Shown: positions 1,270 to 60,468, numbered from the stretch's first letter. The stretch is 64,000 nt of DNA from Chlorokybus atmophyticus (GCA_009103225.1 RHPI01001559.1:300735-364734), one strand, 5' to 3'. Program-made: numbers and translations. The notes: generated by a model from the sequence alone, not told the origin.

Positions 1270-1505
1270 TGTTGGACAATTTAACATCGGCTGCGATGGG
1301 CGACATATTCTGGATGAGCTGGCGCAGATTTCACCAAGGAACTAGGCCATGCCGCAGCGCAACAAGTGTAAACGAGGGTGGGAAGCTTTCAGCGGGGTCT
1401 GTCGGTACTTACTGTAGTTTCGTGCACCATACAACACTTGCAATCCAGGCGCGCAATGGTCTCTCTCAAGAGTCATATTGCATAGCCAATTTAGGCGGAG
1501 GGGGN

Positions 1506-37049: not shown

Positions 37050-37980
37050 TATATATGACNCATGTAAAGGTACAAACCAAGACATGTATGACTGCCAATA
37101 ATAAGAGTCTTTTTATGTGAAATGATATGCGTTTTCGTGAATGCGGTGTAATACACGTTGCAATGAATAGTTCTTCAGTCTTATCAAATTTAACAACTCC
37201 CTTGCAATTGCTTACGCGCGATCATAAGATATTGAATGCGCATCCATCTTTATAAAACATGTGTGTGGTTCATTCGCATTATATACATGCTTTAATTATG
37301 CGCAATTCATGTAGCACAACTTGTCCATAAACACCGTTTACAGAACACAGAGGCCATGCATATGCCAATTGCATAAGCAAAGTTCATATAATACAAATGT
37401 AGGCTATACGTACACTTGACAAGCACTTTCACACATTGTGTTTTCAGTAGTACACAGCTGAATTGTAATGTAAGAAAGTGTGCAGAGTAATCAAGAAATC
37501 ACTCGCCCATACTTATAGCTAATCAGCTGATATTGGACAGCTAATAATAGCCTAGCTGTTACGAGTTCATTATTAGCAATGGTGACATCCATATTGCAAT
37601 CAGATATATAAGTGTGGGTGATGTGCTATTTAACCTTCTTACCAATATCAAAAATGCATATTATGAAGATGATACCTTTTCAGATGTACATGGGTGCGGC
37701 GATAATGTTGCTTGCAATCACACTATATGTATGATGTACGTAGAAGTATCATTGTTTAAGTAACATTGCACGAAGCACAGTCTTTCAACAATGGGTGTGC
37801 AAGTATAAGCAGCGAGACATGAAGGCACAATCTTTGCCACGGAAGCCAAAGCAAAGTTTACAACCTGCTAGGCTATACCACATATGCATAAAGCAAGGTC
37901 TTTGATTACATCTTACACTTCACATCAACCCGCATTTCATTCTTTGTACACCACACTTTCCCACCACTCAAAGCATCCAT

Positions 37981-38059
37981 TGTAACGGGAAGGTACATTA
38001 GATTACCACAAATCGACCATGAAAGCACCAAGTCTTTTGTGGTCGAGTGGGCTGTGACA
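37981..38059 (+). repeat. TRIM 5' LTR
   Basis: tgtaacggga...gctgtgaca, preceded by the TSD and followed by the PBS. Confidence 0.93.
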
Positions 38060-38094
38060 TTGGTCATCGGAGCTTGAGACCCGGGTTCAATTCC
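38040..38094 (+). promoter_or_regulatory. tRNA-type (type 2) Pol III A-box and B-box spanning the LTR/PBS junction
   Basis: A-box TGGTCGAGTGG (38040-38050) and B-box GGTTCAATTCC (38084-38094) start 44 nt apart, as in a tRNA. A D-stem GTCG/TGAC and a partial T-stem can form. Confidence 0.65.
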
Positions 38095-38598
38095 TGCCTT
38101 GCACACGAATTCCGCGGTCGTTGTTTCTCGATCCAATAATCGTAAATGGTCACAGGCGGAAAGCAGAGTTGGGTGCTGCGGGCAAACATTCGGCAGGTCG
38201 CGGGTAGCCGTAGATGCAACATCTTTGGTCGTGGCTCTCTGTGCAGCGTTGATGCTGGGGGCCTGTCACACTGTGTCAGCTTCCGAGCGCGGCGATGATC
38301 AGTGATTGAGGGATATGTCACTCGTTTGTGCTGTCTCAACGAGTACTGATGCGCTGGCGTGTCAGCGTAGCGTCAGTGCTCTGTCATCGTGACTGTCACG
38401 CTGATCAATTGCTGACACTTGTCGCGTGTGCAATGAATGACATGACCTATCCTACTGTGCTGCTGACGTGTGTGCGTTCATATTGGTTTGTGATTGCTGG
38501 TCGGTGGCATTGAGGCCTGTTTAATTGTTGTTTTGCGGATAGCTTGAGGAGGCGGCGGCGTTGTTGTTCTGCGTGTACTTCTGGGGCGGCGGCATGGG

Positions 38599-39117
38599 AT
38601 GGCTGGTGTCGGCGATGCTGCTGATGTGGGTGAGCCGGAAGAAGTCGAGCAATTCCGGGCGACGCTGGCGGAGAGTATGACCACGGACGTGGTGGAGGTG
38701 TTGTGGCAAGTGGGGCGTGAGCGGCGCGGGCGGTGGAACGGTGGTGTGCATGTAGGGGACGTTGGACGCGTCCAGCGTGTGAGCCATGAGTGGGAGCTTT
38801 GCACATTCGGCTATCAGCCCAACCTCATCAGAGCCCTCTGCGTAGCTTTGCCGCCTGGCCTGGAGATCATCGTGACAACGCATGAAGATGAGCGCAATCG
38901 CTGGGATGTGGGCGAGGACGCACAGCAGGGCATGTTGCCCCTGCTTGTTTGTATTGATGACGATTTTACTGGTGAGCCCTGGCTGAGGCTTACCCTGGAG
39001 GGCGGCTCAGTGCGCCGCTGGAAGCTGAGCCTCTTCGTGGGACGCGGTGCCGATCCTGCTTCTGCAGCCAGCTGGGCGCCTGTGGCGATGGGCTTCCTGC
39101 CTGCTGGGCACACCTAG
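38599..39117 (+). CDS. Second ORF of the Academ element (172 aa), function unknown, convergent with the transposase
   Basis: Open frame with protein-like composition lying inside the TIRs. No family recognised. Confidence 0.5.
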   Translation: MAGVGDAADVGEPEEVEQFRATLAESMTTDVVEVLWQVGRERRGRWNGGVHVGDVGRVQRVSHEWELCTFGYQPNLIRALCVALPPGLEIIVTTHEDERNRWDVGEDAQQGMLPLLVCIDDDFTGEPWLRLTLEGGSVRRWKLSLFVGRGADPASAASWAPVAMGFLPAGHT

Positions 39118-42100
39118 TAGCAGCCACTGTGTGGCTGCACAGTACTCTGCTGTCTGTAATTAGTGTGTGTGAACTTGCTGTGCTGCATGCCGTCTTGTTT
39201 GTGCAGGCAAACTACTGCATGCAGCCTCGAACATGCCAGTCTGACAGAAGCTGCCTGTTGTGAATGTTGAATTGCCTGCAAGGTGGGTTGTGCATGCACA
39301 GGATATGGAACCAGGTGCATGTAGTGCATTCTGAATTGACGCCATGGCCTCACGTCTGCATGTGATTCTAGCTCAAGTGCTGTATTCGGACTGCATGCTA
39401 TCCTGCGAGTCTGCCTCTGATTGTGAATCGCCATGGTCTGTTTCCTGTGTGTCCCTTAGTGGCGTGACCAGCATGTCTTCCCCATCCACATCAGTATGAT
39501 CATCGTCACTGCTTACGCTGCTGCTGTCCTCTGTTCCAGAGCTGACATCGGTGTCAATTGTCTGCGTGCTCATGGGCGTGAGTATTGACTGTGTGCTCAT
39601 TGGTGTGCCTGTGCGCCAGTTGCAACAGGTAAGTGTTAGTGAATTGGTGGGCATGTGGGTCCATGTGCAGGTGGTTCCAGTGTTACTGACCTTGCACTGG
39701 TGCTGTGGGGACATCAGGTTGTGAGAACTGCCCTTGGGTGCTGTGACCAGTTCCTCCTTGTCGTTTGTTCTTGCATTCTGTGCATCGGCAACTAGCCCCA
39801 CATGCATTGCCAGCTCTTTTGCAACGGCATTGGTTGTTCGCGCACATGCCTTTCTTGCAACCGCACCCCCTTAGCAGTAGGCTCCTCCGCAACCGTGCCT
39901 GTGCCATGTTCTCGCTGGAGTCCATGGCAGCCTTGAAGATGCCATCTTCTTGGAGGTAACCATATTCGTCCAGCGGTGGCATTTGCATGTCAGTTGAGCA
40001 TGCCTGCATCCACATGCCATGAACCCATATTGCACGCAGGCAGTGCAGTCTTAGAGCCTGGACAGTGGGCATGCGATCTGCTTCCTTCCAGATCGTATGC
40101 CAGCACCCGTTGTGGATAGCCTCCAGCCATTGGTGAATGGCACTGTGTGACTCTCTGTCAGCCTGGATGCCGTTCACCTCCACAAAGAAGGCTTCTGCGG
40201 TGTTGGCCTTGAAGCACCGTTTGTGTTTCATGAAGTATGCTGTCCCGATCAGTTTCAGGTACATGCCAATGTCAGAGCTCATGTCCGCATCAGTGCAGTG
40301 AGTGATGAACTGAGTGCAGGACATCAGAGCCTCCTCTCACCAAAAAGCCTTGCTGATGCCTGCTATGAAGGAGGTGTAGTCTGAACCCGTCACTGCATAC
40401 ATCTTGAGCATGAAAGAGGCTCTGGCATCAATACGTATGAATCTCGTTTGTGGCATGAGCTTGCAGGCTTCCAAGAGTGTGGTGATGTTGATGAAAGCTG
40501 GTCTGGTAGCTGCTGCAGTCGAGCTTGCTAACTGCATGTGTACCACTTTGCCGGATGATGGTGAACCTCGCCACCTCTCCAGCATGGCGAGTCCGATCAT
40601 GGTGGTGTCTAAGTCGGGGCTGTACACGAGGATGCTGCTCTCAGAGGTTCGCATTGCATGCACCCACACCCTGCTGTCCGCTTCTGCATGATTGCACGCA
40701 TACAGGTCTGTGCATGTGTATACGGGGCCCTGCGCGCTCATGGTCACAACTCTGGCAAGCCCTGCATAACTAGGATGGTCACTTCCACCAGCGACCACCA
40801 ATTGTTGGCCTACTCGGAGGTAAGGTGCAGCCTGCTCTGGTAGATGCTAAGTGATCAGATCGCACAGCTGGCGCTTTTTGATTATGTTGCCAAGCAGGTG
40901 GCGCCAGATGCGAGGCAGTGGCGACAGCAGGTGCAGAGCATCTTGAGTACTATGCACCGGCGTCCCAGAGGTGTCTCGGTGCGCCTGCAAGGATGTCTTC
41001 ACGCCAGTGGCGAAAGATGGGTCGTCGAACACTACATGCAGCGAGGTCAGGTCTTGGCTGAACAATCGTGGCATAATAGCAGCGCGCATCAAGTGCTGTA
41101 TGTAGTCACCAATGTTGTTGCAACCAGGACCAGGCTGCATGTTGATGATGAACATACCCTCACTGATCACGGCTTGCACATTGGCAGGGAAGGAGCGGGA
41201 CTGGCAATGTGGATTGGCATCGGCGATCTTGTTGAGAAACGCTGCTTTGTTGCCCTTGCGCATTGATCCATCCAATTCAAACAGAGCTTGAGGTACTTCT
41301 AGGTATCTAGCGTGCACAGAGTCTGAGGGTGTGTCGCTCATCGCGAGCTGCTTCAGCACCAGAGTCTGCGAGGAAAATGGGTGAGTGCTGGCTAATGCAT
41401 CAGGTTGTAGTCATATATTGATTTCATGCACAATGCATCACCTGCTCTCTCACAACAACTGATAGTGCCCTGGCAGCCTTGTTGACAGGTTTTGGTTTAG
41501 CCATTGTTTTGAGATTGTGCTTGCGCGAAATCTTGGCATGGGGGACACCGCGCCCAAATCGCTGGTTGACTGTCAGCCCCAATGCGTCCTTGCCCACCTC
41601 GTAGTGGCGGCTGAGGTCAGCTGCCACGCCATCTGATGCATAATCTTCATTGACCAGGTGCTTCAAACGGTCAGGGCTTTCCTCCGCGAACGCCTTGCTC
41701 TGTCGCAGAATCGACATCATGGCTGCGATGGTGGTTTGTGTGCGTGCAGGGTCGCTGGCCTGTTGAGATGTCTGCCTGGTCCTCCAACGCAAGTGAGGCG
41801 GCTTCACTTGGTTGCGCAATCGCTTCCAACTCTCTACACGGTATGTGCAGTGTGCTGTCTTCTCCCTCATGCCATCGGAGGTAGGTCTGTAGAGTGTACT
41901 CTTCAAGTCTTTGTTGATCAGAGTTTCATGTGCCTCATCTAGAGCGACATTGGACCCTGCGTTCCCCTTCATGCTGACTGTGAATCCTCCTGCTTGCATG
42001 CCTTCCTTGATTGCCGCTGGCCAGGAATATGTATCTGCTAAGTGCCCCACTACCAGACGTTGGTAGTGGGGCCTGTCCCATGCGAAGTAAAGGGGGGCCA

Positions 42101-42753
42101 AGACCTTGTACGACGCCACACGCAGCATCCAATTCGCTGTCCGGATGGCTATAAACAGCGCCATGTATGCGAGCACGTCCCTCTGCGTGAAGCCCCACCA
42201 GAACTTCCAGGTGAGGTCACGCAGTGATCTTGCCTCGCCATATGCCTTGAATGCCTGGTAGTGCTGCAACGCGACATCGGGACTAACAACACCATCCTCA
42301 CCACGGATGGCAGGCAACTGCGCAAACTCCTCGCTCTCCTGAAAGCACTCAATCTGTCTGCGGAGCACAGCCTCGAACCCTTGCAGTTTCAAGGTGTGGG
42401 CTCGCTTCCAATGATGTCCATCCACTAACTGATTGCGTGCTGAGCCAAGTGCAAAGCCAGCTGCCAGTGCCATAGGCTCAATGCCTGCATCGTAGTAGAC
42501 CTTGAAGTTAACAGGCACCGTGTTATACAGTGCATGCCAGTCGCCCACAAAAGGAAGCAACCAAGACCAGTACACAGGGTCCTGCAGCTTGAGCTGGTTC
42601 ATGAGGCTCCATGTTTTCTGGTCGCCAGCCACGACCAAGGTGGTGGTCCCGTGCTCCACCTGCAGCTTGAGTGCAATCTCCATGAGAGCAAGCCTGAGGT
42701 TGTTTGGACGATCCGGGTTGTAAGGCAGAAGTGGCAGGTAAACAACGTGACTG

Positions 42754-43092
42754 TGTCATGAGAGAGGGTGTGCCCCTCCTCCCTTTAATCCCCTACCCCA
42801 ACACCACCACCAGCCTCGCCGCCGCCGCCGCCACTGCCGGGGCAGTTGCCAGAGCAAAAGATGCTCTGGCTATGGCGGCCGCTGCGTTAGCAGCGCCGCC
42901 ATGCAGCTGATATCAACATGAGACTCATGTCTCATGTCGATATCAGTGTTATAGTTAAGTAACACTACATTAGGGCCTTAACACTAGGTTAACGGCCCTA
43001 ATAAGGCTTAATAGGCTGTATAATCCCGTTGGGACCCTTATTTAATCCTAAATAAGGGCGGGGAACCTCTATGGAGGTAGCACACCGTTACA
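42754..43092 (-). repeat. Chromovirus 3' LTR
   Basis: Matches 49281-49619 and is adjacent to the PPT. Confidence 0.97.
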
Positions 43093-43214
43093 TTCCCCCC
43101 CACTTAGGTTTCAATGTCCTCATTGAAGGGTTAGCAAAGCCCCATCACGAGTCACAAAACGAAAGCAGTGAGAGAACCAGGGCCGAAGCGGTAAAGATGT
43201 CTGCCAGCACCCTT

Positions 43215-46200
43215 TTACCGTTCGCGTGTGGACACAGTACTCCAGTACCCCCGAAGAACCTCTTGGCAGTTGGTAAGATTCCTTTCGGGCTCCCATGTAT
43301 TGTGTTCAACACCATACCCTTTCCATTTCACCAAGCAGGACGGCGCGAGTCCGCGTCGAGGCTTACGGTGACTTAGGATTGCTTCCACCTCATACTCAAA
43401 TGTATTGTCACCATCCACTGCGACTGGGGGTGGAGGAGGTTGAACCCGACCGTCTGATCGGTACGGTTTCAGTACACTCACATGAAACACATTGTGAATT
43501 CGTATCGACATTGGTAAATCCAAACGATACGCGTGAGTGCCGACCCGATCAATCACTTTGAAAGGGCCTATCCAGCGAGGGAAAAACTTGCGGGTACCCA
43601 CTCCCTTGATGGATATATTTTTGGTACTCAAAAGTACTGAACAGCCCACATCGTAGCTGGCCTCCCTACGATGCGCATCAGCATGGGCTTTTTGTCTATC
43701 TTGCGCTGCGCGCAGACAGTGCTTTGCCAACGCTAACCTATCCTGCATGGCCGAAGCCATCTCGCGCGCTGCAGGTACGCGAGTTATATCGGTTGCGGGC
43801 AATTTTAAATTCGCAGGCCTCAGTGGATGCACGCCGTAATTCAAGAAGAACGGAGTCTCCTGCACACTCTCTTGCCATGCATTATTGATCGCAAATTCAG
43901 CCATTGGGAGATAAATATCCCAATCACTCTGATTCGGGCTCACATAATGCCGGATGGTTTCCTCAATCGCTTGATTGGCGCGTTCTGTTTGACCATCCGT
44001 CTGTGGATGGTAAGCAGTGCTCATGTTCTGCTGAATGTGTAAGAAGCTGCATAGCGACTTCCAAAACTGAGCCACAAATCGCGGATCGCGATCTGACACG
44101 AAGTTGCGGGGCAAGCCATGCAACTTGAACACAGACGCAACAAAAACCATCGCCAACTCACGGGAGCCTATCTCCGTGCGACAAGGGACAATGTGGACCA
44201 TTTTTGTTAAACGATCCACGAAAACTGCAACCGCAGTGTGACCTAATGCTGTCTCTGGGAGCTCAGTAATTAAGTCCATACTCACACTTTCCCATTTGCC
44301 ATCAGGAACAGGCAAAGGTCGCAGCAACCCAGCGGGTTTCTGACGTAACGGCTTGTCACGCTGACATTTGTCACAGGTGTCAACATAACGCTTTACGTCA
44401 ACAGGCAACGATGGCCACCATTACAGCTGTTGCGCTGCCTTGGTAGTCTTGCGATTTTCAAAGTGCCCAGCATACGGTGGGTCGTGTACATCAGCTATGC
44501 ATTGCATGCGTAGCCCAGCATGGTCAGGTATCACCAAGCTAGCACCCATATAATACAAGTTGTCTCGTGCTTCAAGCTGTTGTATATTCTCTTGCCGTGA
44601 GAACCATGGGTCTAAGGAATACCCATGCAAAACAGATTGCACAAATGCATCATTAGCGGGCAATGTAACTTGCGTCGCAAGCAATTGCGCACGCATAACT
44701 GCCAATAATGACGGACAGCGACTTAAAGGATCTGCCACATTAGTTCTGCCAGGCCGATATACCCATTCAAAAGTAAATCGCGACAGAAACTCATTCCAGC
44801 GAGCTTGCCTACGTGACAAGGTCAGCTGCGTTGAGAAGTATACTAATGGGTTGTGATCAGTCACCACTGTGAACTGAACTCCCTCTAAGTAACATCGCCA
44901 AGTTTCGAGAGCATGTACGACACCAAGCAACTCTTGCTCAGTAGTAGTGTAGTTTACCTCCGCTGGGATAAACTTCCTACTTTCATAAGCACATGGTCTG
45001 CCGTCTTGCAGTAGTACTGCACCACACCCAAGGGTGGAAGCATCACTGACCACAGTGAAATGTTTATCCCAATTTGGCAATGCCAATACTGGAGCTGAAG
45101 TTAATGCTAACTTCACTTGTTGCATAGCAGCTTCTTGGTCTGACGTCCAAGAAAATGGCGCGTCCTTTCGCAACAATTTAGTCAAGGGCATTACAACTGT
45201 AGAATAACCCATCATAAATTTGCGAAAATAATTTGCCAATCCCAAAAATGATCTCAGTTGATGAATATTTTTGGGTTGAGGCCAATTCTTGACAACTTGC
45301 ACCTTGCGAGGGTCAGGCTTTACACCCGCACCACTCACAACATGTCCCAAGAATGGTAACTCCGATTTGCAAAAGTCACATTTTGCAAGGCTGGCAAATA
45401 AATGATGCTTCCGCAACAAAGTAAACACCGCTTCTAAGTGTTGCTTATGTTCCTCTTTGGTTTTACTAAAGACAATAATGTCATCCAAGTAAACCATAAC
45501 ATACTTGCCAAGTATATTACCGAAAATTTTATTCATTTCCTTCTGAAACACAGCAGGCGCATTCGTCAATCCAAAGGGTAGCACTTTGTATTGATAATGG
45601 CCCGAAGGTGTTCTGAAAGCTGTCTTATAGACATCAGCGGAATGAATTCGGATCTGATGATATCCACTTGTCAGGTCTAATGTACTGAAGTATGCATTAC
45701 CTGATAGTTTATCAAACACGTCATCAATCCGTGGCAACGGGTATCGATTTTTCACCGTGATTTTGTTTAAAGCACGATAGTCCACACACATGCGCAATTT
45801 TCCATTCTTTTTCATCACAAATAGGATGGGTGCGCCAAAGGGTGAAGAACTTGGTTCAATCAATCCTTTTTCCAATAACTCCTTGATTTGTGTTTCCATT
45901 TCCCCCCTTTCTCTAGGGCTTAGCCTATATATTGGCCGAAAAGGAGGATCACTATCAGGAATTAATGGTATAGTGTGTCCGACACCTCGGTCAGGAGGCA
46001 AGCCCGGCAACTCATCTGAGAACACATCTTGATATTCCTCAATGAGGTCTGCCACACCTTCAGTACTACCCGGCGCAATGTCATCTGATGAAGACAAATG
46101 TACCAGAAAAGCCGGTGTGTTTTTGCGCAACGCACGTTTCACCTGTAGTGCCGTGAGTAACGCAGGGTCGGGTTGCTTGAATTCCAAGCTATGCGACCCT

Positions 46201-46985
46201 TTCACAGACAATGTAATCCGCTTACCGCCTTTCTTTACTGTGCACAAGCGTGCACCCGTATCCAATGTCATTGTGACATTATTTTGCCATTCTTGGCCTA
46301 GTACCACATCAACACCAGATATGTTGATTGCTACTACTATAAAGGCAAGATTGGCATAATAATTACCAATTTTAACCTTCAATTTTACTTCTCCCGTCAC
46401 TGGCAATGTACCCCCAGCACCGGCAGCCGAAAATGCTGAGGGTTTGCGCATGATTTTATTGCGCGCAACCCATTGCTCGTCCACGAAGTTGTGTGTCGCA
46501 CCAGTGTCAATCAAAAACGAGCTATTCACACCTTGCATTGTGCCACTGAATGTCCACAACAAAGGTACCACTCGTCCTTGAAAGGTAGCCAAGAATCCGT
46601 GACTAATGCGGGGGTTGATTAATATTGCTGATAATCGAATTGTCCCAGTCTCGCGCTTGGTGAATTGTTTTAAAACAGTACCCCCTCGAGTATACTTCAA
46701 CCATGGGCCATGATATTTTGGCACCATTGCTACCACACTCAGGGATCTGTGTTTACATTGCAATTCACTCAATGTGTGCAACACGTCGGTAAGCATGTTA
46801 AATTTCACATGTACCAGTACACAAGTATTTGCTTCCACTGTTGCAACATCAAACAGTGGTAACTTGTGATGTGTTTGCCATGCATGCGTCATTACATGCA
46901 TTTGAGACAGATTATCAAACCAGTTAACTGCTTGTATCTCAAGCAACTGACTATCAACCTTTGCTACATCAGCCACAGCGTAATC
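43215..46985 (-). pseudogene. pol: Chromovirus pol (extra N-terminal domain, protease, RT, RNase H, integrase, chromodomain) with one in-frame TAA
   Basis: FLIDTGATH, RMCVDYRALN, YLDD, VSDAS, GHF...CDKC, HPQTDGQTERAN, YEVEAIL...LVKWKGY...NTWEP. TAA at 44421-44423 falls in the conserved L-[Y/F]-WWP context. The two ORF-track pieces are in the same frame. Confidence 0.95.
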
Positions 46986-48452
46986 CTATTCAACCTTCTT
47001 GGCTTTGCCCTTCGCCTTCGTAGGACAGGCCTTTGCAACGTGACCCGGCTGATGGCAGATGAAACAGGTGCGAGCTGCAGTAGGTGCATTACCAGCAGAC
47101 GTACCACCAATTCGAGGAGCGAATGTCTTCGCTTTCTTCGCCACATGTACACTCGGCGGAGGATAGCGCTTTATTCCCCCCCCTTGCGGCTTGGCCATAG
47201 CTGTCACGTTCGACTTTTCCTGCACGACCGTGTCATCATTGTACAGGTAAACACTTAGCTTTTGCAGCTTGGCCAAGTCATCAGGAACCCAAGGAAGCCC
47301 CGTTGCAGTGTTGTACTGCAGCTGATCGCGAACACGCGCATCCAAGCCACGCTTGTACAACTCGAACTGCTCAGCTTTGTCCATAGGCATCAGGCCGCTA
47401 TTGGCACGACCAACTAATGCTTGGAACTCCTGCAGATACACTGATGCTGCTCGACCATTCTGTCGCAACTTGCTAAGTTTGTTACGAGCCTGAGTAGCCG
47501 GATCCATGCCACCATAGCGCTCCATCAGAAACTGAAACAGTGCTGGTACTGTCTTCACAGCGCCATGCTCTGTTTGTCGTGCCCACTCGGCGAGAGCATC
47601 AGATGGCATAAGCAACTCAGCAACGGCAACGTGCTCACCCACCGGGCGCTTTAGCGCTGTCAGGTAATGTTCGACAGTCACCACCCAATCATGGATACTT
47701 ACACTACCGTTAGGCTTGAACTTTTCAGGTTTGTTCAATGCCGTAACCGGCAGCCCCACTGATGCGCCAACTGATGAAGCAGCACCCGCTACTTGCTGAC
47801 GCAGCGCCATCAACTCAGATTGCATCGCATCGAGGCGTGCCTCCAACTTCACTCGGCCAGCCAACTTATTTTCCAAGTTAGGTCCCAAGTACCAGAACAC
47901 ATCCTTGCAACGCTGCTGCGTTTCAACCATCAAGTTGGCTAAGGCCTCAAACGCCATCCGCTTCCCTTCGTATGGGAGCGGCCTATCGTAGACGGCCATC
48001 AGAGCAGCCACTTTTGGATCACCACGCACGAGTGGCGGAACATTGTTCGTCAACTCGTGCTCAATCATGCGGATCACCATCTCCTTACTAGTGCGAGGGA
48101 GAGTGGCAAAATCTGTTTCATAGCCATTACGAACCTTCTGCGCCCATGCATCCCACACTTCTTGACGAAGCTGCGGGTGGGCGTCAAGTAAAGTCTTGCG
48201 CTCGCGCGCATACTTTTCAATGGCTCCGCCAATGACACTCGGTGTGTCCATTACAGCTGGCTCACTGTGGGTAGACAGGTCGGGGGAAGCTTCGCTATCT
48301 TGCTTAGCCTCTTCTTCCTTGTCACTGTCAGTGAGCTTATAGCTCTCACTCGTGTCCGAGTCCCTCACTTTGTCATCACTGGATGGCTCATATGAGGATG
48401 ATGAATCAGGGACGGTGAAGTACTTTTCACCTCCCTCTCCTTGGTCAGACAT
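46986..48452 (-). CDS. gag: Chromovirus Gag with a CCHC zinc knuckle
   Basis: ATG at 48452. Capsid-like LNKPEKF...W, ARNKLSKLRQ...YLQEF, and CFICHQPGHVAKAC. Ends in TAG in frame with pol. Confidence 0.92.
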   Translation of the reverse strand: MSDQGEGGEKYFTVPDSSSSYEPSSDDKVRDSDTSESYKLTDSDKEEEAKQDSEASPDLSTHSEPAVMDTPSVIGGAIEKYARERKTLLDAHPQLRQEVWDAWAQKVRNGYETDFATLPRTSKEMVIRMIEHELTNNVPPLVRGDPKVAALMAVYDRPLPYEGKRMAFEALANLMVETQQRCKDVFWYLGPNLENKLAGRVKLEARLDAMQSELMALRQQVAGAASSVGASVGLPVTALNKPEKFKPNGSVSIHDWVVTVEHYLTALKRPVGEHVAVAELLMPSDALAEWARQTEHGAVKTVPALFQFLMERYGGMDPATQARNKLSKLRQNGRAASVYLQEFQALVGRANSGLMPMDKAEQFELYKRGLDARVRDQLQYNTATGLPWVPDDLAKLQKLSVYLYNDDTVVQEKSNVTAMAKPQGGGIKRYPPPSVHVAKKAKTFAPRIGGTSAGNAPTAARTCFICHQPGHVAKACPTKAKGKAKKVE

Positions 48453-49280
48453 CTGCCCAAGGATAACACTGTTCAAATAGTGCACAAACACGGAAAGTTG
48501 TGCACTATGAAAACGTCGAATACTAGTGATTTTGTCCTGTCAAGTTTGGAGGGGTAAACGTGGAGTATTCAGCCCAAACAAGAGCTCTCCACACACCTCT
48601 CAACTAGACAATCACTGTGCAACAAACCGCACGCGAATGCACGCGACGGCTCACGAGCTATGGCTGCTCAAAGTTTTCACTTTGTACAACCCAGCTCAAC
48701 TTACAATCACAATTGACACCCAAAGTGCCAAAATCTCGTTGAATCAGCCCTACAGGCCGATATCGACAAGTTGTGAGTTGTGAGTTTGATATCGACCGCA
48801 CAGAAAAATTCTGGCGGCCTCACCGCACTGACTGGCGGTACCGAGACAGTCGATGTTGCCACCGAACTGCCCCCAAGGGAATTTATCCAAAAAAATAGAT
48901 AAAAAGCCCTTCACCACCACGAATCCACGTGGTGGTTAGCACACAAAGATTATAGTAAACAATATATGATTACTATGTTATGTGCTTGGATGCAATGCTT
49001 CAGGGAGGGGCCTGGATGGCCGCCCCCCTTCACACAATAACAACTAAACTATGACAAGTTAGGCATGGCATGGCATGGCATGCATAGGCTAGGCTAGGCT
49101 AGGCTAGGCACCAGCAGCAGCGTTTAACTACAACAGTTAAACCAAACAAAACTTTTAACTACCGCTAGTTTGCCGCCGCAGTGCCGCCTGCCGACGCAGT
49201 GCCTGCCGCCGCCCCTGCAGTGCCTGCCGCCTGCCGCCGCCCCTCCCACAGGCCCCTTGCCGCCCGTGCTCCGATACCAA

Positions 49281-49619
49281 TGTCAGGAGAGAGGGTGTGC
49301 CCCTCCTCCCTTTAATCCCCTACCCCAACACCACCACCAGCCTCGCCGCCGCCGCCGCCACTGCCGGGGCAGTTGCCAGAGCAAAAGATGCTCTGGCTAT
49401 GGCGGCCGCTGCGTTAGCAGCGCCGCCATGCAGCTGATATCAACATGAGACTCATGTCTCATGTCGATATCAGTGTTATAGTTAAGTAACACTACATTAG
49501 GGCCTTAACACTAGGTTAACGGCCCTAATAAGGCTTAATAGGCTGTATAATCCCGTTGGGACCCTTATTTAATCCTAAATAAGGGCGGGGAACCTCTATG
49601 GAGGTAGCACACCGTTACA
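49281..49619 (-). repeat. Chromovirus 5' LTR
   Basis: Adjacent to the PBS. TGTAAC...TGACA on the minus strand. Confidence 0.97.
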
Positions 49620-52600
49620 GACTGGGCTCCGGTCTAGCCATAGGCAGCATGTTCACAATGGTTGTCTTCAGTTTGCAGTCATGCATGTTTGGGTATTCAA
49701 TTCTGGACAGCACTGCTGCATGTACGAGCTCGCTGAATTGGTTGAAAGCTGCCTGCTCTTGCGGAGTTTGGTCTGTGACAAACGCAGGATCTGAACGCGG
49801 TGATCGTCCCTGAGTGCCAACAGAGGGCGCTGGCATGACCGGAACTGCAGGTGCCCTCAATCCACCCTCACCTAATGTTCGCCAGCGCACATGCTGTTGG
49901 CAGGCAAAGGTTAGCACTCCCCATCCAGAGCTTAGCACAGGTAGCACTTGTTGCACATGCCTGCAGGCAGTGCATGCTGTACATAGAGGTCGCTCACCGG
50001 CACTGTGGCTGGGTATGCTGGTAGCTGGATATTGCATGCAGGCTGTGGCACAACGGCTTGTGTCGTGGTGCAATGCAAGTCAGCGTCTCCTCTCCCGTTA
50101 AACCGTAAGGAGTGCCCGGTTTTGCAGTCCCAGTTGTCCACGGTCGCAACCACAAAATTGCCGATGTTGATGTCCACAGGCGCGGGAGTGTTGAGGACAA
50201 CCTTTACACGAGCAGAGATGTGCCTGCGCGTACAACCACGATGAGTTCGCTCACCTCTTGCAGCCGATAAGTGCATGTTGCTGTTGCTCACCTGTTTAGA
50301 GTAGGCTTGCTGACACATGCTGCAAACTGATTTAGCACTGTTTGCAGCGACGAGAACCTACTCATAGAGTCCACTGCGTCCGCAAGCGCTACATGCACTT
50401 TGGAGTACGCCCTGTTGTTGCGCATGTACAGCGCGCAAGCAAACAGGTACGCTGTCTGCACTTGCATGTCGTGCAGTCTTGGGTTGGTTGAGTCGTTGAT
50501 GTCAACTCCAGTGTCACGCAGATTCTTTTGCATGCTGCGCATGCCAGTAAGGGCACCGAACAACTTGCTCAGTTCTGGGTTGCTTGGACGCAAGTCCTCA
50601 ATCACCTCCAACGTCCGCAGGTCAGGTACGCTGCGCGCATTGATCTTGGCGCGCTGACGAGCTTCTTCTATCATCAGTCTAGCCAGCCATGCCAGCTGTG
50701 TGTCCGTGAGTGCATTATCTTGGGCAGAGGTGGACGATGCAGTCTCTGAACCCTGGCTGGCGTCAGCAATGGTTGAAGAGCTCTGCATGCGTCGCAGCAG
50801 ACAGTGAATGGGGTCGGACCATGAAGCCAGGAGCAGGTTGCCAAGCCGTGGACTAGTGGTATGTACTTGCAGAAGATTGCCTAATGCCCGCTTCAGAACA
50901 TTTAGCAAATTGCGATTGTCAACTCTGAATTGTGTGGCAACCTCTGGCAGGAGCAGACACGCATCCATTTCCCTGAGTTCGCGCCAGACATGCTTGCCTG
51001 CTGCGATCAGCGGCCCATCTCCTACGAACGAGGCTTCGCAGGAGTCCCAAGCGACTAGCTGCTCGGCAGACCGTCTGGGGGAAGGCTGGCGAGAGGAGCC
51101 AGGACTACGGTTGTTGCTCTCCCCGCCTCCACCGCTTGCACTGTTTCTCAACTCCTGCACCAAAGCCTCAAAGGCATCTACGTCTGCCATGGCAGCAGCT
51201 AGACTTTGCTCTGCTTGGGCCCTGCCCCGCTTAGCTTCATCTGCCACAGCCTGCAGCTTGGCGTAGTGCGCGTCCCAACACTCCAAGTCTGCCAATGCAT
51301 TGCCCAGACTTGACTTCAGCTGGTCACACTCCAAGCGCGCTACTGAAAGGTCAGTCCGCGCCTGCCTTTCTTTGCGTTCACATTCCTGCCAGTTGCATCA
51401 TGTAAGGTAACTAACAAGTGCTTCTTACACCACGTACATCCCGACAGGTGACCTGCTGTCTTTGTTGCCAAGTGCGTTTCTCCGCCTGCCAGTCCAGCTC
51501 GGCCTGGGTATGCTCACTACACATGTCCATATACTGTCTCCGGGCTTCAGCACAATTGCTTGAGATTGCTGCCTCCGCAGCAGAGGCCTCGCTCATTTTC
51601 CTCCGATAATAATTCACGGTAGACTCCAACTCCTAAACACCACTGCTTGTACACATACTATGGCTAGACATACTTGCCCCCCACCCCCCCACCCACACCA
51701 TGCAGTCATAGCTTGAACCACACATGGAACGCTGGCATACCAACACATTACCTTACACATCGAATGCAGTGCCTGGTTCTCTGTGCGCAACTTGTCAACT
51801 GCCTCCAATCCAACTTCACTGCAATGGCCCTAGTTGACCACATTGCACATTTGTTGGGACATAGTTGCACACAGTGCACACCACACTTACACCGTGCTTG
51901 TTGCGCGCACAACGCACAGCATTGGTGCGCAACAACTCAACAATTACAAATGCAATAGCAACACGTTTGCCACAAATGCGCTATATGCACATGTCACACG
52001 CACATGTCACATTACACATATGCACGGGTAAACACTCAACCACGATACTTGTGCACTCGAGCACACACATGAGATGCACTCGTGTGTTGCACTTGCATGA
52101 ACACAAGAGCACACCTCATTAGCAGCAGCTTCGAATTGGCGCCTAACGTGATTGAACTGCATCTGCTCACCTTCGTGCTCCAATTCACACCGATTGTCCG
52201 CATCTATATGTCGACAATGCGGAGAATTCAACATGTGATGCATAGAATATCATAAACACTATAAAGGAAGCTGTAGCCTTAAGTATTGCTCTACCTATAC
52301 TAAATTGGGAACCTCCTATTATATGGCAGCGGACCTGCATTGGCTGCAGCGCTAGGAGCTACAAATGGGCGTAATACACCGATGCTTGGACCCTTGCCAG
52401 GTCCATGGCGCTGAGGTTGTGCACCAGATGCCTTGCCTAAGCTGCTGACTCCAGGAACACTCTGATGGATAATAGATCCAACAGAGCGGGCTGCAGACGG
52501 AACAGGCACAAACTCCCCCTAACATGCCAGCACTACAATCACTTACACGCACTGTCAAACACAAGTGGCTTTGCGAAGGCACACAACTCATCGAAGGTGT

Positions 52601-53867
52601 CTGCATGTACATGGTCTGCGTCTCTGCCACTTGAGGAGGCAGAGCATACTCTGACTCTTCAGCCATGAAAGACTGAGAACCAGCACCATCATCCGACGAC
52701 AAAGGCTCTGCTGCAGGACAACTAGCGGCGCGAGATGGGGGGGGCAGAGGTACTGGTTCTGGCACGCGCTCTGGCGCAGGCAACGCGGGCAAGGGCACAG
52801 CCACAACAATGGCATCATCAACAAACTTGCCCTGCACAGAAGAATATCAGCTGCATCAACCCATTATGCTTGCGTGCACTAGCATTATATCACTCACCGG
52901 CACTATCTTCATGGTATCATCCGCTATGTTATGCGAGAACATAACCCCCTTAGTCAATGCGTGCAGCTGGACGAGGTACAACGACATGGTCTCATGCAGC
53001 TCACAGTCACGCCTCACAGCACCTCACATCAGGTCCATCCGAGCACGGCTCTTCGTAACCGACTGCTTCTGAGCGGTGGCATGAGCCTTGCGCTTCGCAA
53101 GCTCCTCGGGGGTCAGTGCAGACTTTCGCTTGGCCCTCTTTTTCGCAGGCGTCGAGCTCGCCGCTTGCTCCATCTGATCAGCTGATGGCACCACGATGTC
53201 CAGCTGCTGACTACACCCGCCCCGCCCCACATCTCCATCATGACCATCGCCGTCCATCCCGCCGCCACACTTGGCGCCAAAACTTCAAAACAACATGCGC
53301 TAGCAAGCATGCCTGTTGCCAAAACGCATGTCATTACTGACTCGAGTACCGATTGGACCAGCAGAGATAACGCAACACGCATTACTGCATATCGCCTCTC
53401 AAAATCATCGACGACATGCGAAACCAAAACATCTGTCACTCGAGCGTCACGCAAGTGATCTATACAGTCACAACACTCGAGCTAAGTGGTGAGCGATCCA
53501 GACCGATCACTGCACCCTCGATCGCACGACTATCCCGAAACCAGAGAGAATTCCCAACTGTGCTTTCCGCCTGGTCACTTTATAAGTGCCATCATCGATG
53601 GGTCGCGACTTGCCTAATGGCAGTCGCGCCGAAGTTCGGCGGCCGAACTGACCAGTTCAGTCGGCGCGGCAGGGCGCGACCTGCCTATTGCGGCGACGCG
53701 ACCTGTGGGGCCGGCAGCGGCGCGCTATGCGCGCGCTGACCGGTATGGGCCTAAATTAGCCGGTCCTTGGCTGTGGGGCCGGTGACCGACCCTAACAAAC
53801 CCCTTCGGTAATTCCCCAGCTGACCGGGCAGCTGCCGAGGACGTCAGCGTTCTAAAGTGGGGGGGAA

Positions 53868-53946
53868 TGTAACGGGAAGGTACATTAAATTACCACAAAT
53901 CGACCACAAAAGCACCAAGTCTTTTGTGGTCGAGTGGGCTGTGACA
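53868..53946 (+). repeat. TRIM 3' LTR
   Basis: Preceded by the PPT and followed by TSD TCCAT. Contains a perfect 13-bp stem (53900-53912 with 53921-53933). Confidence 0.93.
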
Positions 53947-54461
53947 TCCATGCTAAAATCGCAGCATTAGAAGAGGTAAGAATTCTTACCTCGTCACGCA
54001 TCCGATGGCATCGGCATTATCATCATGTAAGTTACAGTCACCTACTCACATAATGCTTGTCACTAAACGCACGGACGTGGCTGCGCATTGCAAAGTACGG
54101 ATAACTGCAGTGTTGTGACACCCCCTTGCATGCGTGCAATATCACTTCAGAGTTCTGTACCACACACCAACCGCAGTTTTGTATACTGTTCCCCGCACAC
54201 ACGCGCTCACACGTTGCATTGCATATCTTGTATTCATCGCACTCAGATATGTTGCTTGACTTTTTTGTCCACAGCCCCATACATACAAACAGGCAGCTAC
54301 CAGAGTCATCCACAGTCCAACACATGCCCCTACACCACCACATTGGCTGCTAACACAGCACCAGCTGCAGCATGACAGCGCCTGAGCGGGGGAGAGGGAC
54401 ACCGAGTGTACAATAAATGCCAAACGCAAATGCCATGCATTTGACCACATGGGTCCTGCAG

Positions 54462-55075
54462 CCCGTGCCAGTACTGGCACAAACCCGTGCCAGTACTGGC
54501 ACAAAAACCCCGTGCTAGTACTGGCAACCTGTATAAGACCCATGCCAGTACTGGCATAAACTATGCCATTACTGGTTTATGAATTATAGACCTGTAATGG
54601 CACAAGTACTGTGCCGGCAATGGCACAGACGTCTTCACTGGCACAAAGTTGGTGCCAGTACTGATCGTGAATGGCTAACAAACCCAGCATTGGCACAACC
54701 ATCTCACTCAGCACTGGCTTAAACTATTTTAACCCCAGGGCTGGTCTTAAACCGTGTATGCCAGCATTGATACAACTTGTCAAAGACCAGCACCAGTTGC
54801 AGACCGCGTTTTCCAGCACTGGCACAACCTACATGCTTGCATATACTGGAAAGACCTGCTCACAAACCTTCAAGTCCCAAAAGACTCAGTACTGGCTTAA
54901 GCCCTCTGACACCGGTGCCGGTCATAGACCGTGCTTGCCAGTGTTGGTAAACCTGGTTTAAGACCAGCAACGGTTGCAACCTAAGTTTCCCAGCAATGGC
55001 ACAAGCTACATGCGTTCCTATACTGGAAAGACATGCTCGTAAACCTCCAAAACCCAAAAGACTCAGAACCAGCAA
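54462..55075. repeat. Subterminal repeats: GTGCCAGTACTGGCAC palindromes and a diverged ~110-bp duplication (178-bp offset)
   Basis: Perfect 16-bp palindrome at 54465-54480 and 54487-54502, with variants up to about 54663. Region 54783-54892 resembles 54961-55070. Confidence 0.85.
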
Positions 55076-55900
55076 CGTTAGATAGTTATACATGCCATTA
55101 CTGGCTTACAAACTCGAGAGCACTGCAATTCGGAACTCAGGAAGCTCCCGCAGGCTAGACCCGCAGGCTAGACCAGGCCAGACCAGGCTAGACCAGGAGG
55201 CGGCTGCGGCTACTGCTGCAACCAGCAAACCCATTGGCGGAAGCTTGCAGGACCTCAAGGTCTTTGGGTGGAACGGTTCTGGAGCTGGAGAAACACTGTT
55301 ACAGCTGCCAAACAGCTGCCAATGCTTCACAACCTACCGGTGTAGCACCGGGGCTGCAGACCCGGTGTTAGAACTTGCAAGGTTGCAGACGGCTGAACTG
55401 CTTGTTTGGTCAACATAAGCTTAGAATGCCCCAAAACCACTGCAAAAGCGTGTATTGAAAGCTATGCAACCAATGCCCCAGCTGTCATCCAGCATCCCAA
55501 GCTTTCCAAGCTGATAAGCCGCTGTTGCATGCTCAGGGGTTGCTCACCAGGGTTAAGCCGGTCTAAGACCTGGTCTTTTGGTTGAAGCAGCGGGCTGGCC
55601 GGCTAAAACACCCGCAGCAAGCCAACTCCAGCTTTCCAGGTACGTCTATGCAAACTCTGATGAAGTTCGTTTTGATCCAGTCTTGTGGTTGTATTTTAGC
55701 TCTGGGTGGAATTCTTTCGCTTAGCCATGCATTGTTGCGCCTGTGCAAGTTTCCTCCAACCACCTGTCCGTTAGTAACTATAGTCTTGAATTAGCTCCTT
55801 GTCAAATGCCTAGCTAGTCCAAGCCAGCCAGGTCTTTCAGCTGCTATGGCTGCCTGTTGACAGTATCAAGCTAACATGCTCTTTCGTTTCTCCTAGTTCC

Positions 55901-58900
55901 ATGGCTAGTCGCATTGCACAGCTGGACGCTATCGGCCGCCGCAATGCATTCAATGAGGCAGTTGCTTTACTCCAAGTGCCGGTCCATAAAGCATTTAGAC
56001 GTACGCAAGCAAAGTTCAAATAGCAGCAAAGACAGCCTGCATTCCAGCCGCGTGACAGTCAGCAGACTACCTTGAATGCAAGTCAGCACCAAAACCCATT
56101 GCAGTCCATTCCAAACATTGCGGAAGAGCAGCCGCGGCCAAACCACCAGCAAGAAAACCAAGACAATCCGCAACTTCTACCAGCCTCGCAAGACCTCTTA
56201 CATGACCAGCATCACCACAACCTTGAGACACCAGAACATCCAATCCACACGCAAGACCCGCTGGGAGATTCTCTTCTTGCCAGTTCACTGAACGGCATTC
56301 GTGACACTCCTGAGCTGCCATGTGACCAACCTCCACAACCCTCACCTGAACCAAAGGAGTTGCCTACACATCTGCAAGCAACGTTAGAACCATTGGTCCA
56401 GCCCAATGAAGACCCGGTTGCAGACCCACAGCTGTCTACATCTCTCAGATCCTGTCCATGCTCCAAGTGCAACAATGAGGTGACTTACAGATCTTTTTGA
56501 CCATGGCAGTCTTGTCTTTTGGTGGTTTTGATGGTTTAGGGCTTTCGTTGGCAGCGTGTTTGGCTAGATCCTAAGCTTTTCTGTCACAGGTGCTGCAGAG
56601 GAACTCAGTAATCCAACTCCACTTGCACAAAGACCGCGTGCTTCAGCAGTTCCGGGCCATTCCCAAAGTTGTGTCACCTGCTGTAGCACCAGCAGAGAGT
56701 GACCCACTTACCGAGCACCCGAGAAGTCTTACATGGACAAGTACCTAGACATCATGACCATTGCCGACGAGGGCGGTATGTCGAAAGACTGCATCAACAA
56801 GTTGCTGGCCTGTCTGTTCAAGGGCGATGACTCTCTTCTCAGTATGGCCACCAAGAAGACCTTTAGTCCGGAATCAGAGGGTTGCAAGCTACCAACATCC
56901 TGCAAAACTGCCACCAGCCTGTTCAATCGCATGGGTATGCCAGTGCCTTTGCACTACTCCGTTTGCAAGGACTGCTCTTACCTCTTCAGCAAGCCATACC
57001 CGAGAGACTTTGGCGATGACGTTACCGAAGAGTCCTCTACTTGGCGTCAGCGTGAGAAGTTACGCAAGACAATGCAGCAAGAGAAGTGTCCTTGTGGTAA
57101 CCTGCGCAAGGACTGCGTGAGCTACTACTACCTACCTCTCAAGGCTAGACTGCAACTGATGTTTCGTTGCCCTACCATCTGCTACGACTGGTTGCAATCA
57201 TGGCGCGAATGCGACAGATGGCTTGATAAAGACCCTGCAGTTCCTCCTGCAGCGCAGCAAGAGGCTTGGGATGGCTCCCGCTGGCGAGAGCTTTCGCACT
57301 TTTGGAACCCAGACAAGTCCTTTTGGCTGCCTGTCAGATGTGAGTTCTGTGGAACAATTCATCGTCCTGGACACCATTTTGCTGAGACAAAAGATGGGTA
57401 TGCATGGGTCTTCAAGTGTCGCAACGCCCAGTGCCAGCAGATGACCTCTGCTCTCAGGCAGAAAGCCTCCGGAGACCCGAGGAATCTGGCTTTTATTGCC
57501 CATTGGGATGGCTTCAGCACTGCCACAACCACCAAGCGAGGCACCCTCATGATCAATGTTGCAGTCTTAAACGGTGGAAAGCTCTTAAGCACGCAAACCT
57601 CCTCGCTGCTGCCAGTGGGTTTTGTGCCAAAAGACCAGATACCTAATGGGATTAACAACACGGACCCGTTCTTGGAACCCCTGGTGACTGAGTTAGAGTC
57701 CCTTTACATCGAAGGGTTTGGCACAGAGTACGGACTTGCTACTTCCGATGTCGCGGACAACCTGCATCAACAAGCAGCAGGTACACCCAGCAGCCTGCTT
57801 GACCAAATGACAGATTAACGTGTCTTAGACTCGTCCTAGAACGTTTTAGACCCTGTCCTAGGACTTGAGACTTGTCCTAGAACCCAACTCCCATGTACAT
57901 TGCAGGAAGCACTACAAAGTTGCGTGCTATGCTGCTGCTGTGGGCTGGAGATCATCCTGCCCAATGCCAAGTGCTGAAGATGAAGGATGGTGGCATCTGT
58001 GCCTGTCGGCGCTGCTGGTTGGTTGGTGAGCCACACCAAGTAGCTCTGAAACCCAAGGTGCATGAAGCTCAAGGTGCAGAGCCTGCCAGCACCTCACGCA
58101 GGTCCAAAAAGAACAAGAAAGGTCGCAAGGCATCTAGTAAAAAGGCAAGCAAGCCCCGACAAGCTGCAAAACCCAAAAAAGACACCATGACACGGTACAA
58201 GTATGGCAGCAACTGGAGGCTCTCCAGACATCCTTTTGCTGAGCGTACAGCAGAACAGACCTTGACGAACATTCAGGAGTTGGAGTCTGCGCCAAAAACA
58301 AAAGTAAAAGAGCTATCCCAAAAACTTGGGGTCACCGGCAGGAGCCAGCTCTGGCGACTTTATGACCTGTACGGCTTTGATCCTCTGAAGGATCTAGTCT
58401 ACGATGTCATGCACACACTTTGCGAAGGCCTTGCAAAGGGTCTGTGCGCAGCGACACTTTCCAAGGGAGGAGAAGAGCGCGTTGCTCAGCTAGAACTTGT
58501 GGAGGCACGCTTAAAGGACTTCATGGCTGCAAGAACCAAGGAGATGCGGTCTGGACGTTTTCCGAGCGGTGTCACGGATCGGCTTGGATTCTGGAAGGCT
58601 GAGGACTACCAAAAGTTTATGCAAGACTGTGCACCCTATGTGCTGACAGATCTCGTGGGCAAAGAGCGTCGCGATGTGTGCATGGCACTGCACAAGATTA
58701 TGCAGTTGTTCTACAGTCATTCTAGGCTGTATGGTTGGACTGCCGACAACCTACGCCTGGCAGACTCGCTCCTCAGGTATTGGAGACTCAACTCCGAGGA
58801 CTGCTTTGGCAGCAACAGCAAACCTTTTGAGCATGTGGCTGGTGCAGGGCACATTCTTGATGATATCCGTCGCCATGGAAGCCACGATGTCTACTGGTGC

Positions 58901-60468
58901 TATGCTTTTGAGCGTTCTGTCTCCGAGCACCTGGAGACATCTACCAACAACAAAGACTACGAGTTTAATTACATTCATCGCTGGGTGCGGCTTTGGTTTG
59001 AAAGACTCATGACTGTTCTCCACGAAGACCAGCGGACTGGAATGGTTTGGGCTAGGCGATGCCAAGTGCAGCTGCGTGCGCATCGCACTTCATGTGGTGG
59101 AGCAGGGTTCTGGTACGAAGCACCGAGCCAAACAAAGGCGTTGCACCTCTAGAAGCTGGCCGAGACGTACCCTCAGCTACCAGAATCTGTTGGCATTCAT
59201 CACAATGGCATCTTGATAGGCCCTAAGGATGGCAGACTTGCGCCCTTGGAGGCTGAACGCTTTGCGTTGGTCCAGAGTGCAATGCGGGTCGATGCGGATC
59301 TGCCAGTGCAGAACCTGGCACACGACTACAAAGCTATCTTGCATGGAGGAGAAATCTACAGGTCAGTCTTTTGGTTTCTGGTCTTGGTGTCAAGCCTGGG
59401 TCTATTCTCTCTGGTCTTGGTGTTAAGCCTAGGTCTATTCTGTCTGGTCTTGGTGTTAAGCCTGGGTCTATTCTGACTAGTCCTGGTGTGAAGCCTGGGT
59501 CTATTCTGACTGGTCTTGGTTGTCATCTTTTGGTTTGTTGAACCTGGGCCCGGTCTTCTCCAGAGACTTGGGCTTAACCTTTGTCCATGTTTTTACTATG
59601 ACCCTAATATCAGTAGTACTGTTGGCGCAGGACCCGTTCCATCACCGGTCTTGACAACGCTTTGACCAATGACAACCTCTTTGTGGCTGTTAACCAAGTG
59701 TTTGTGCACGTCTACAAAGTGCCCAAAGTATTTATTGCGGCAAGCCCCTACGTCATGCACACAAATGCTTCTGGTGCCCTATTTCGAGACAGGGATACCA
59801 GAGCGGCACTTGTGCAATCAGCTGGCAGTCAAGAGATTTGCATACCTGCTCGCAGACTGCTACGCAAGTTTATCCTGCTACCAAAGCGTCGCGAGACACC
59901 GACTACAAGTCATCTGACTGATGATCACCTACTGGCATACGATTATCAAAACCCAGACCTGTATGTGAGGGCTACCGATGTTGATGTGCCCATCTGGCCT
60001 GAACCTGGAGACATTGTTCAGATCAGAAATGAAGCCAAGTCAGTGTGGGACTTCAAGCTGCCAACTGAGGCTGTTGAGGATTATTGTAACCCTTTGCCCA
60101 GCAGCGCAAGCAAACGCAAGCGCAACAGCCAGCGCTCTGAGCGCAAAGGCAAACGGCACAAGATAGTCGAAGACTCCACATCCGGAGAGAGCAGTGAGGA
60201 ATGCTCTGAAGATCCAACTGATCCCGGGCCCTGGTTTGCTGTGGTCAGAGAAGTTGATGAGTCCGGCAAGGATGCTGTGATAGACTACCTAGAGCAAAGG
60301 CAAGGTGGACTGTGGGTTGTCAACCAGAACTACCGAGGAGAGGCAGCAAGCAGCAGGACCATAGCGCGTTTGATGCCTTGGGTCTGCATCAACAAGAGGT
60401 CTTGGCGTGAGACCGCGCGGCAATGTCCATGCATCATGAAGTTTCATAAGTACCATGTGTACTTGTGA
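55901..60468 (+). pseudogene. EnSpm/CACTA transposase (Tnp2 / Transposase_21-like with a DUF4218-like C-terminal part), multi-exon, inactivated
   Basis: CPCSKCNNE...HL, EAWDGSRW, DPRNLAFIAHWDGF, PFLEPLVTELESLYIEGF, LLLWAGDHPA, ACRRC, DVMHTLCEG, FWKAEDY, WCYAFER. In-frame TAG at 56021-56023 and 59150-59152, and a frame change near 56700-56720. Confidence 0.85.
59378..59520. repeat. 33-bp minisatellite (about 4.5 copies) in a transposase intron
   Basis: ctggtcttggtgt(c/t/g)aagcctgggtctattctg repeated. Confidence 0.85.

Follow-up and report, generated by a model that had tools for sequence, protein, structure and literature searches.

Three mobile elements lie one inside another in the 64-kb window, that is, the whole stretch of DNA that was analysed. 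The outermost is a TRIM; a DNA transposon has entered it at GTCA, and a chromovirus, the youngest of the three layers, lies within the transposase gene of the transposon. Each element has its own TSD (TCCAT, GTCA and CAGTC, respectively).

The TRIM occupies 37976..53951 on the plus strand, between TSD copies TCCAT at 37976-37980 and 53947-53951. Its 5' LTR (37981..38059) and 3' LTR (53868..53946) are 79 bp each, have TG...CA ends and differ from each other at three positions. The interior is divided into a 5' part of 93 nt (38060..38152), ending in the target duplication GTCA, and a GC-rich 3' part of 290 nt (53578..53867), which folds better than its shuffles (z = -2.9). The two pieces add up to 172 + 369 = 541 bp, which agrees with the size, the LTR length and, for this element and the chromovirus, the 5-bp TSDs (TCCAT and CAGTC) given in an earlier note on this DNA. 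A Met-type PBS with one extra C at 38065 lies at 38061..38073, a GAGGAC motif at 53837-53842 and the PPT at 53855-53867, all on the plus strand; the extra C may be a tolerated bulge or a sign of another primer. With two short LTRs and a TSD, a length below 1 kb, a PBS and a PPT, multiple dispersed copies and no protein of its own, as judged from the interior halves of 93 and 290 nt, the element is almost certainly a real TRIM. Its LTRs had been described as unusually short. They are short, but not exceptional: the accessible text on sugar-beet TRIM-01 gives a median LTR of 72 bp (PMC13570524), and the LTRs of metagenome TRIMs found in this analysis are ~70 bp long.

In the 3' LTR, CACAAAAG and CTTTTGTG (53905-53928; also 38018-38041) can pair over 8 bp into a hairpin that takes in the T4 run, and its stem contains two of the differences between the LTRs, those at positions 40-41. 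CpG decay was considered for these two differences and dropped, because in sequencing runs each LTR deviates at one of these positions from the remaining copies. Self-priming of the TRIM was likewise set aside, the match between U3 and PBS being weak by eye (5 contiguous bases).

The middle element (38153..53573, minus strand) is an Academ-like DNA transposon of ~8.5 kb without the chromovirus, with 21-bp TIRs of the form CAG...CTG (1 mismatch) and the TSD GTCA. Its broken gene has a DUF6589 and a C-terminal TCR/CXC domain, the Pfam hits being DUF6589 and TCR only; XPG-like motifs were seen in this gene by eye only. Twelve homologues of the transposase (783-2075 aa, unnamed or uncharacterised) align on both sides of the chromovirus: all 12 match from ~42752 downwards, and five also match weakly at 50464-49968. 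YAG termini and a long gene, with an XPG/PIN-like portion and a Cys-rich C-terminal domain, are AcademX features that the middle element may share. The 4-bp GTCA falls within the 3-4 bp given for AcademX TSDs in the accessible part of the source (PMC10045372), the likeness being one to a description and not to an Academ reference sequence. The transposon has almost no cover in sequencing runs X1 and X2, whose contigs join across its insertion site.

The innermost element is a Chlamyvir-type chromovirus of 6866 bp (42754..49619, minus strand) with the TSD CAGTC and 339-bp LTRs (49619-49281 and 43092-42754) that differ at 1/339 positions. It lies within the bounds of the TRIM, as had been claimed, but is not nested there directly, being inserted in the Academ-like transposon. 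Its order is gag, TAG, protease-RT-RNase H, one in-frame stop, and integrase-chromodomain. The TAG is at 46988-46986 (minus strand), between gag and protease in one frame, and is likely read through; the extra in-frame stop, between RNase H and integrase, is at 44423-44421. A non-standard genetic code was rejected as the cause of these stops, because all three stop codons occur and a gag-pol TAG is typical of Chlamyvir. According to the available REXdb data, Chlamyvir elements have a 5-bp TSD, a mean length of 6697 bp, a stop between gag and pol in 80% and a tRNA-Met PBS in 41% (Neumann 2019, PMC6317226). The nested element has the same TSD size, a length of ~6.7 kb, the gag-stop-pol order with GAG-PROT-RT-RH-INT domains and a chromodomain, and a tRNA-Met PBS; it differs from the Chlamyvir pattern by the one further stop. 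Its RT groups in a 30-row clade with Haematococcus and Closterium elements (SH-aLRT 99), apart from the seed-plant rows, in a quick tree of 45 rows built without a named Chlamyvir or REXdb reference. A green alga is therefore the likely host. Scans of viral contigs returned one phage tRNA and, with a single-protein query, no close chromovirus.

The TRIM is mobile and multi-copy. Parts of the query 53300-56300 were present in two of the six sequencing runs listed, from two studies, and copies were sought in contigs of X1, X2 and X3 aligned at 85% likeness with 37100-55500. In X1 and X2, summed depth, which is not copy number, was 75-187 in TRIM bins, as against 4-7 for the right flank; both also have high depth over the chromovirus. 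One contig per run, in two studies, connects 38139 to 53572 and skips the insert, so uninterrupted TRIM copies exist. Exact LTR ends are also joined to chromovirus sequence elsewhere, at three joints (43381, 48300 and 48784), although joints at 85% likeness can arise from repeats and are reportable only between sequences within the aligned stretch, which biases them towards the chromovirus. Multiple dispersed TRIM copies are supported in the two studies by depth excess, by variants and by joints that span the insert or lie at exact LTR ends. An X3 contig has the order PPT-LTR-PBS, as in a tandem array or circle; an X3 contig also spans 38002-38129, with the region of the extra PBS C, with 0 gaps. 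Conservation of the A box described below and of the extra C was read among the variants listed, plus one X3 contig. The run contigs yielded no TSD pair of any other TRIM copy and no empty-site allele, the left flank being almost without cover in them. Assembly gaps elsewhere in the window might suggest that the TRIM is an assembly artefact or a one-off deletion derivative, but the separate TSDs of the three nested elements, together with the uninterrupted copies and sequence variants from two studies, largely refute this and leave it scarcely credible.

The ends of the TRIM resemble those of the chromovirus. At the PPT-U3 junction its sequence agrees over 21 nt, without a difference, with that of the chromovirus (43085..43105, minus strand, read as 43105-43085), as reported earlier, and its U5-PBS junction has one base, the extra C, inserted relative to that of the chromovirus (TGACA, T, TGGTATCGGAGC; 49268..49285, minus strand). 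The two elements also agree in their 1-nt spacer and in having the G variant of the Met PBS. Beyond these junctions, no exact match of either TRIM half with the chromovirus is longer than 10 nt; the LTR bodies (79 vs 339 bp) are unrelated, again as claimed.

These junctions were compared with those of 94 loci with related RTs from other organisms (80 kept of 117, plus 14), which are mostly eukaryotic contaminants of prokaryotic assemblies and many of which are without ends. Loci L052-L131 come from 117 prokaryotic-assembly contigs that encode Gypsy-type RT, likely as eukaryotic contamination, and include several algal chromoviruses. The nested family matches the TRIM at 21/21 PPT-U3 bases, and the 94 loci match it at 17/21 at most; algal-clade chromovirus families with 58-63% RT identity match at 16-17/21. 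At the other end, the last 12 bases of U5 are matched at 6/12 by the nested element, whose U5 match amounts to 5 nt only, at 9/12 by L054 and L055, and at 11/12 by L095, an unrelated algal chromovirus. GAGGAC precedes the PPT not only in the TRIM and the nested element but also in several chromoviruses of seed-plant type. The 3' end of the TRIM, with its PPT, its TGTAAC start and GAGGAC before the PPT, looks chromoviral. A Met PBS is widespread, tRNA-Met primer sites being the commonest class in the accessible survey of plant elements (39%; PMC6317226), and in the published part of Selaginella Helenus-1_SMo the first 12 letters of the interior are those of the nested chromovirus's PBS (PMC10886601).

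These junction comparisons indicate a chromovirus as helper, and the nested family is favoured by the 21-nt match. A helper of chromovirus (Chlamyvir) type is very probable on the evidence of the ends, which appear to be largely lineage-wide among algal chromoviruses; the question whether end motifs are common to unrelated families is answered partly in the affirmative, by the 16-17/21 junctions, the Met PBS and the U5 of L095. The earlier note went further and saw a parasite-helper pair at one locus. On that account the TRIM would be an ordinary one, served specifically by the nested chromovirus family, with dependence keeping the shared ends in place, and the evidence seems evenly balanced over it. 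The nested family gives the best PPT-U3 match, shares the spacer and PBS variant, and is multi-copy in the same two runs, where TRIM ends are joined to its sequence. Against this, the nesting is indirect, with the chromovirus two layers down; U5 is matched better by L095 and by L054/L055; the extra C of the TRIM PBS is missing from the chromovirus; and the joint evidence carries the bias noted above. A further difference comes from the SMART FRetro129 and its putative helper FRetro64 (Gao 2012, PMC3281118): the accessible account describes a tiny TRIM with an LTR unlike that of its helper save for a short motif, and a similar PBS and PPT, as here, but the helper there is Copia and the interiors are 96% identical, whereas the pair in the window has no interior homology of more than 10 nt. 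In the parts of the literature available, TRIM-helper pairs were proposed for 11/289 plant subfamilies (PMC4717578), and helpers were assigned by sequence similarity to 30/115 sugar-beet TRIM families (PMC13570524). The helper question is of the smaller interest, an algal chromovirus partner being an addition and not a surprise. A specific helper is also compatible with transcription of the TRIM by Pol III, considered next, and differs from it only in partner specificity.

The final 20 bases of the 5' LTR contain an A box, TGGTCGAGTGG (38040..38050, plus strand), which has 0 mismatches to the consensus. A B box, GGTTCAATTCC (38084..38094, plus strand), lies in the interior, 11 bases past the PBS. 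Their starts are 44 nt apart, with the LTR end and the PBS in between. The boxes are not mentioned in the earlier note. On both strands of the 64-kb window the A+B pair is unique, as is the strict B box. The pair arose in 4/100000 shuffles of the 172-nt piece; single boxes arose in 536 (A box) and 147 (strict B box) of 100000. The window copy has a non-consensus base at 38089 in the B box, and other copies have the consensus G there (depth 121/126 in X1, 143.5/143.5 in X2 and 7.2/7.2 in X3). A and B boxes 44 nt apart, with a consensus B box in other copies, form the motif that marks a TRIMp3.

Just upstream, at 38029..38038 (plus strand), a CAA triplet (38029-38031) and a T4 run (38035-38038) would provide a Pol III start context and a terminator. 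The only T4 runs of the TRIM are those directly before the A box, one per LTR; in the 3' LTR the run is at 53922-53925 and the A box copy at 53927-53937, with no B box downstream. Absence of T4 from the interior is not significant (1768/5000 shuffles). The triplet stands at the kind of site at which plant tRNA genes are often started, but it is weak evidence, because 36-45% of these genes have a CAA within 10 nt in the data available from PMC11700998. The box region shows no tRNA-like folding (z = +0.3), and neither ARAGORN (tRNA) nor Rfam scans found tRNA or 5S sequence. Taken together, the motifs suggest that the TRIM probably has a working Pol III promoter.

The layout was tested in metagenome contigs scanned with the PBS and B box alone, which gave 50 hits. 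A direct repeat ending at the PBS was found in 10 hits, and 13 were judged TRIM-like by eye, after the sequences had been seen; one is a duplicate (L041 = L008). An A box (at most 1 mismatch, within 45 nt before the PBS), which is absent from the query, occurs in 10 of the 12 distinct TRIM-like hits, compared with 3/37 other hits and 282/3600 shuffles as controls; L030 is without one. A-to-B spacing is 41-46 nt in 11 of the 12, mostly with a T run directly before the A box. The 37 hits out of 50 that are not TRIM-like include many tRNA genes. Nine of the 12 TRIM-like hits belong to one family, so that the sample represents 2-3 independent lineages. By blastn, the metagenome TRIMs have no DNA similarity to the window TRIM, and in these unrelated elements the A-B spacing is kept while the intervening sequence is different. 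Their contigs are AT-rich, and one of 19 ORFs has a Pfam match (RVT_3); land plants as hosts are a guess.

The family of nine (L015, L016, L023, L024, L028, L034, L046, L048 and L049) consists of TRIMs of ~260-290 bp with ~70-bp LTRs, which contain a T run and an A box in addition to TATAAAT, end in TA, not CA, and are followed by PBS and B box. L008, L012 and L030 apparently have interiors of ~55 nt only, comprising PBS, B box and PPT. L012 has tandem short LTR-end/PBS units, and in L030 the PBS that comes after the downstream LTR has no B box.

These comparisons also bear on whether the boxes are left over from a tRNA fragment or a tRNA-derived SINE, or are simply chance, with Pol II transcription from the LTR or read-through from the host. 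Either box alone can arise randomly at the rates given, and the B box of the window copy is off consensus; even so, this account is doubtful, as the boxes sit at tRNA spacing on either side of the LTR end and the PBS, an arrangement that no simple SINE insertion would produce, most other copies have a consensus B box, and unrelated TRIMs repeat the spacing around different sequence. The B-box-like stretch could instead act in the RNA, as a T-arm-like hairpin that aids primer annealing or packaging, and not as a DNA promoter. It adjoins the PBS, a short stem-loop is possible, and the 3' interior is structured as well. Such a role is improbable, since it leaves an A box and T4 at fixed spacing in the LTR unexplained, and the first 600 nt of the chromovirus contain no B-box match, so that the RNA of the chromovirus itself does without one.

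Among known systems, the closest are the TRIMp3 elements. Helenus, of tRNA type, is likewise below 1 kb, with PBS, PPT, a 5-bp TSD and a proposed A/B Pol III promoter (Kojima 2024, PMC10886601, accessible text). In Helenus both boxes lie within each LTR, whereas the B box of the window TRIM lies beyond the PBS, in the interior; because of this, only the 5' junction of the window TRIM has the whole promoter. With only the A box in its LTR, the window TRIM falls outside the Helenus definition, although the motifs suggest that it would function like a TRIMp3. By hand count of the published sequence, the A-B start spacing in the Helenus-1_SMo LTR is 43, against 44 here (PMC10886601). The same text places Helenus in fungi, animals and Selaginella, with no report from algae. 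Cassandra, the 5S-type TRIMp3, has start and stop of Pol III inside its LTRs and a short R of 18 bp, and forms tandem LTR-interior arrays to which the PPT-LTR-PBS contig of X3 is similar (PMC10886601 and PMC7215508, as far as accessible). It differs in that its type 1 (5S) promoter is contained entirely within the LTR, its transcription has been shown experimentally and its range is land plants; no 5S-derived sequence was found in the LTR of the window TRIM by Rfam scans, which separates it from Cassandra and Ajax. In the available text of Kojima (2024, PMC10886601), only Cassandra counts as validated for Pol III, and the rest are 'TRIMp2'. For FRetro129, the accessible description names a TATA motif but says nothing of Pol III boxes (PMC3281118).

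The best overall explanation, at a probability of about 60%, is a TRIM driven by Pol III from a split promoter and mobilised by a chromovirus-type helper. TFIIIC would find the complete pair of boxes to bind only at the 5' LTR or, in a tandem array, at every junction; 3' LTRs and solo LTRs would be silent, because the two boxes pair only where an interior follows the LTR. Pol III would start ~10-20 nt upstream of the A box, read through the nearby T4, cross the 383-nt interior and terminate at the T4 of the 3' LTR, giving a terminal repeat R of ~8-18 nt, to be compared with 18 nt in Cassandra. The weakest step is the read-through, in the 5' LTR, of a T4 that would be only a few bases away from the predicted start. 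The TRIM RNA would then be packaged by the Gag of a Chlamyvir helper and copied by its RT, with priming at the Met-type PBS and the PPT, and the helper integrase would act on the TGTAAC...TGACA ends and leave the 5-bp TSD. In the later history of the locus, the Academ-like transposon would have entered one TRIM copy and the young chromovirus the transposon.

Judged from motif layout, there is an even chance that such elements form an unrecognised, widespread TRIM class (in algae, fungi and probably land plants), with A box and terminator in the LTR and B box after the PBS, in which only intact 5' junctions would fire, solo LTRs would be silent and LTRs could shrink to ~70 bp. If so, many TRIMs assumed to be driven by Pol II would live on LTR retrotransposons as SINE-like parasites transcribed by Pol III, in this case on a Chlamyvir chromovirus. 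A promoter divided by the end of the LTR would account for very short LTRs and would escape screens for tRNA sequence inside LTRs. No description of a PBS-split promoter was found in the accessible TRIM and Pol III literature, outside which lie most subscription journals, figures and some supplements; the available parts of PMC4717578, PMC3281118, PMC13570524 and PMC12859917 do not mention one, and no B-box-bearing TRIM sequence turned up in the supplement rows searched (summaries and primers). The motif itself (T4, A box, LTR end, PBS and B box at ~44 nt) is applicable to any TRIM library.

Elsewhere in the window, positions 430-5645 hold a tandem array of a 210-bp unit in ~24 copies that are 99-100% identical, with one break near 1270-1505 and no Rfam match. 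Long open frames, of which four were tested without a Pfam match, occur together with purine-/pyrimidine-rich tandem repeats at 56024-60468 and 61791-62716, and these two regions are possibly another mobile element.
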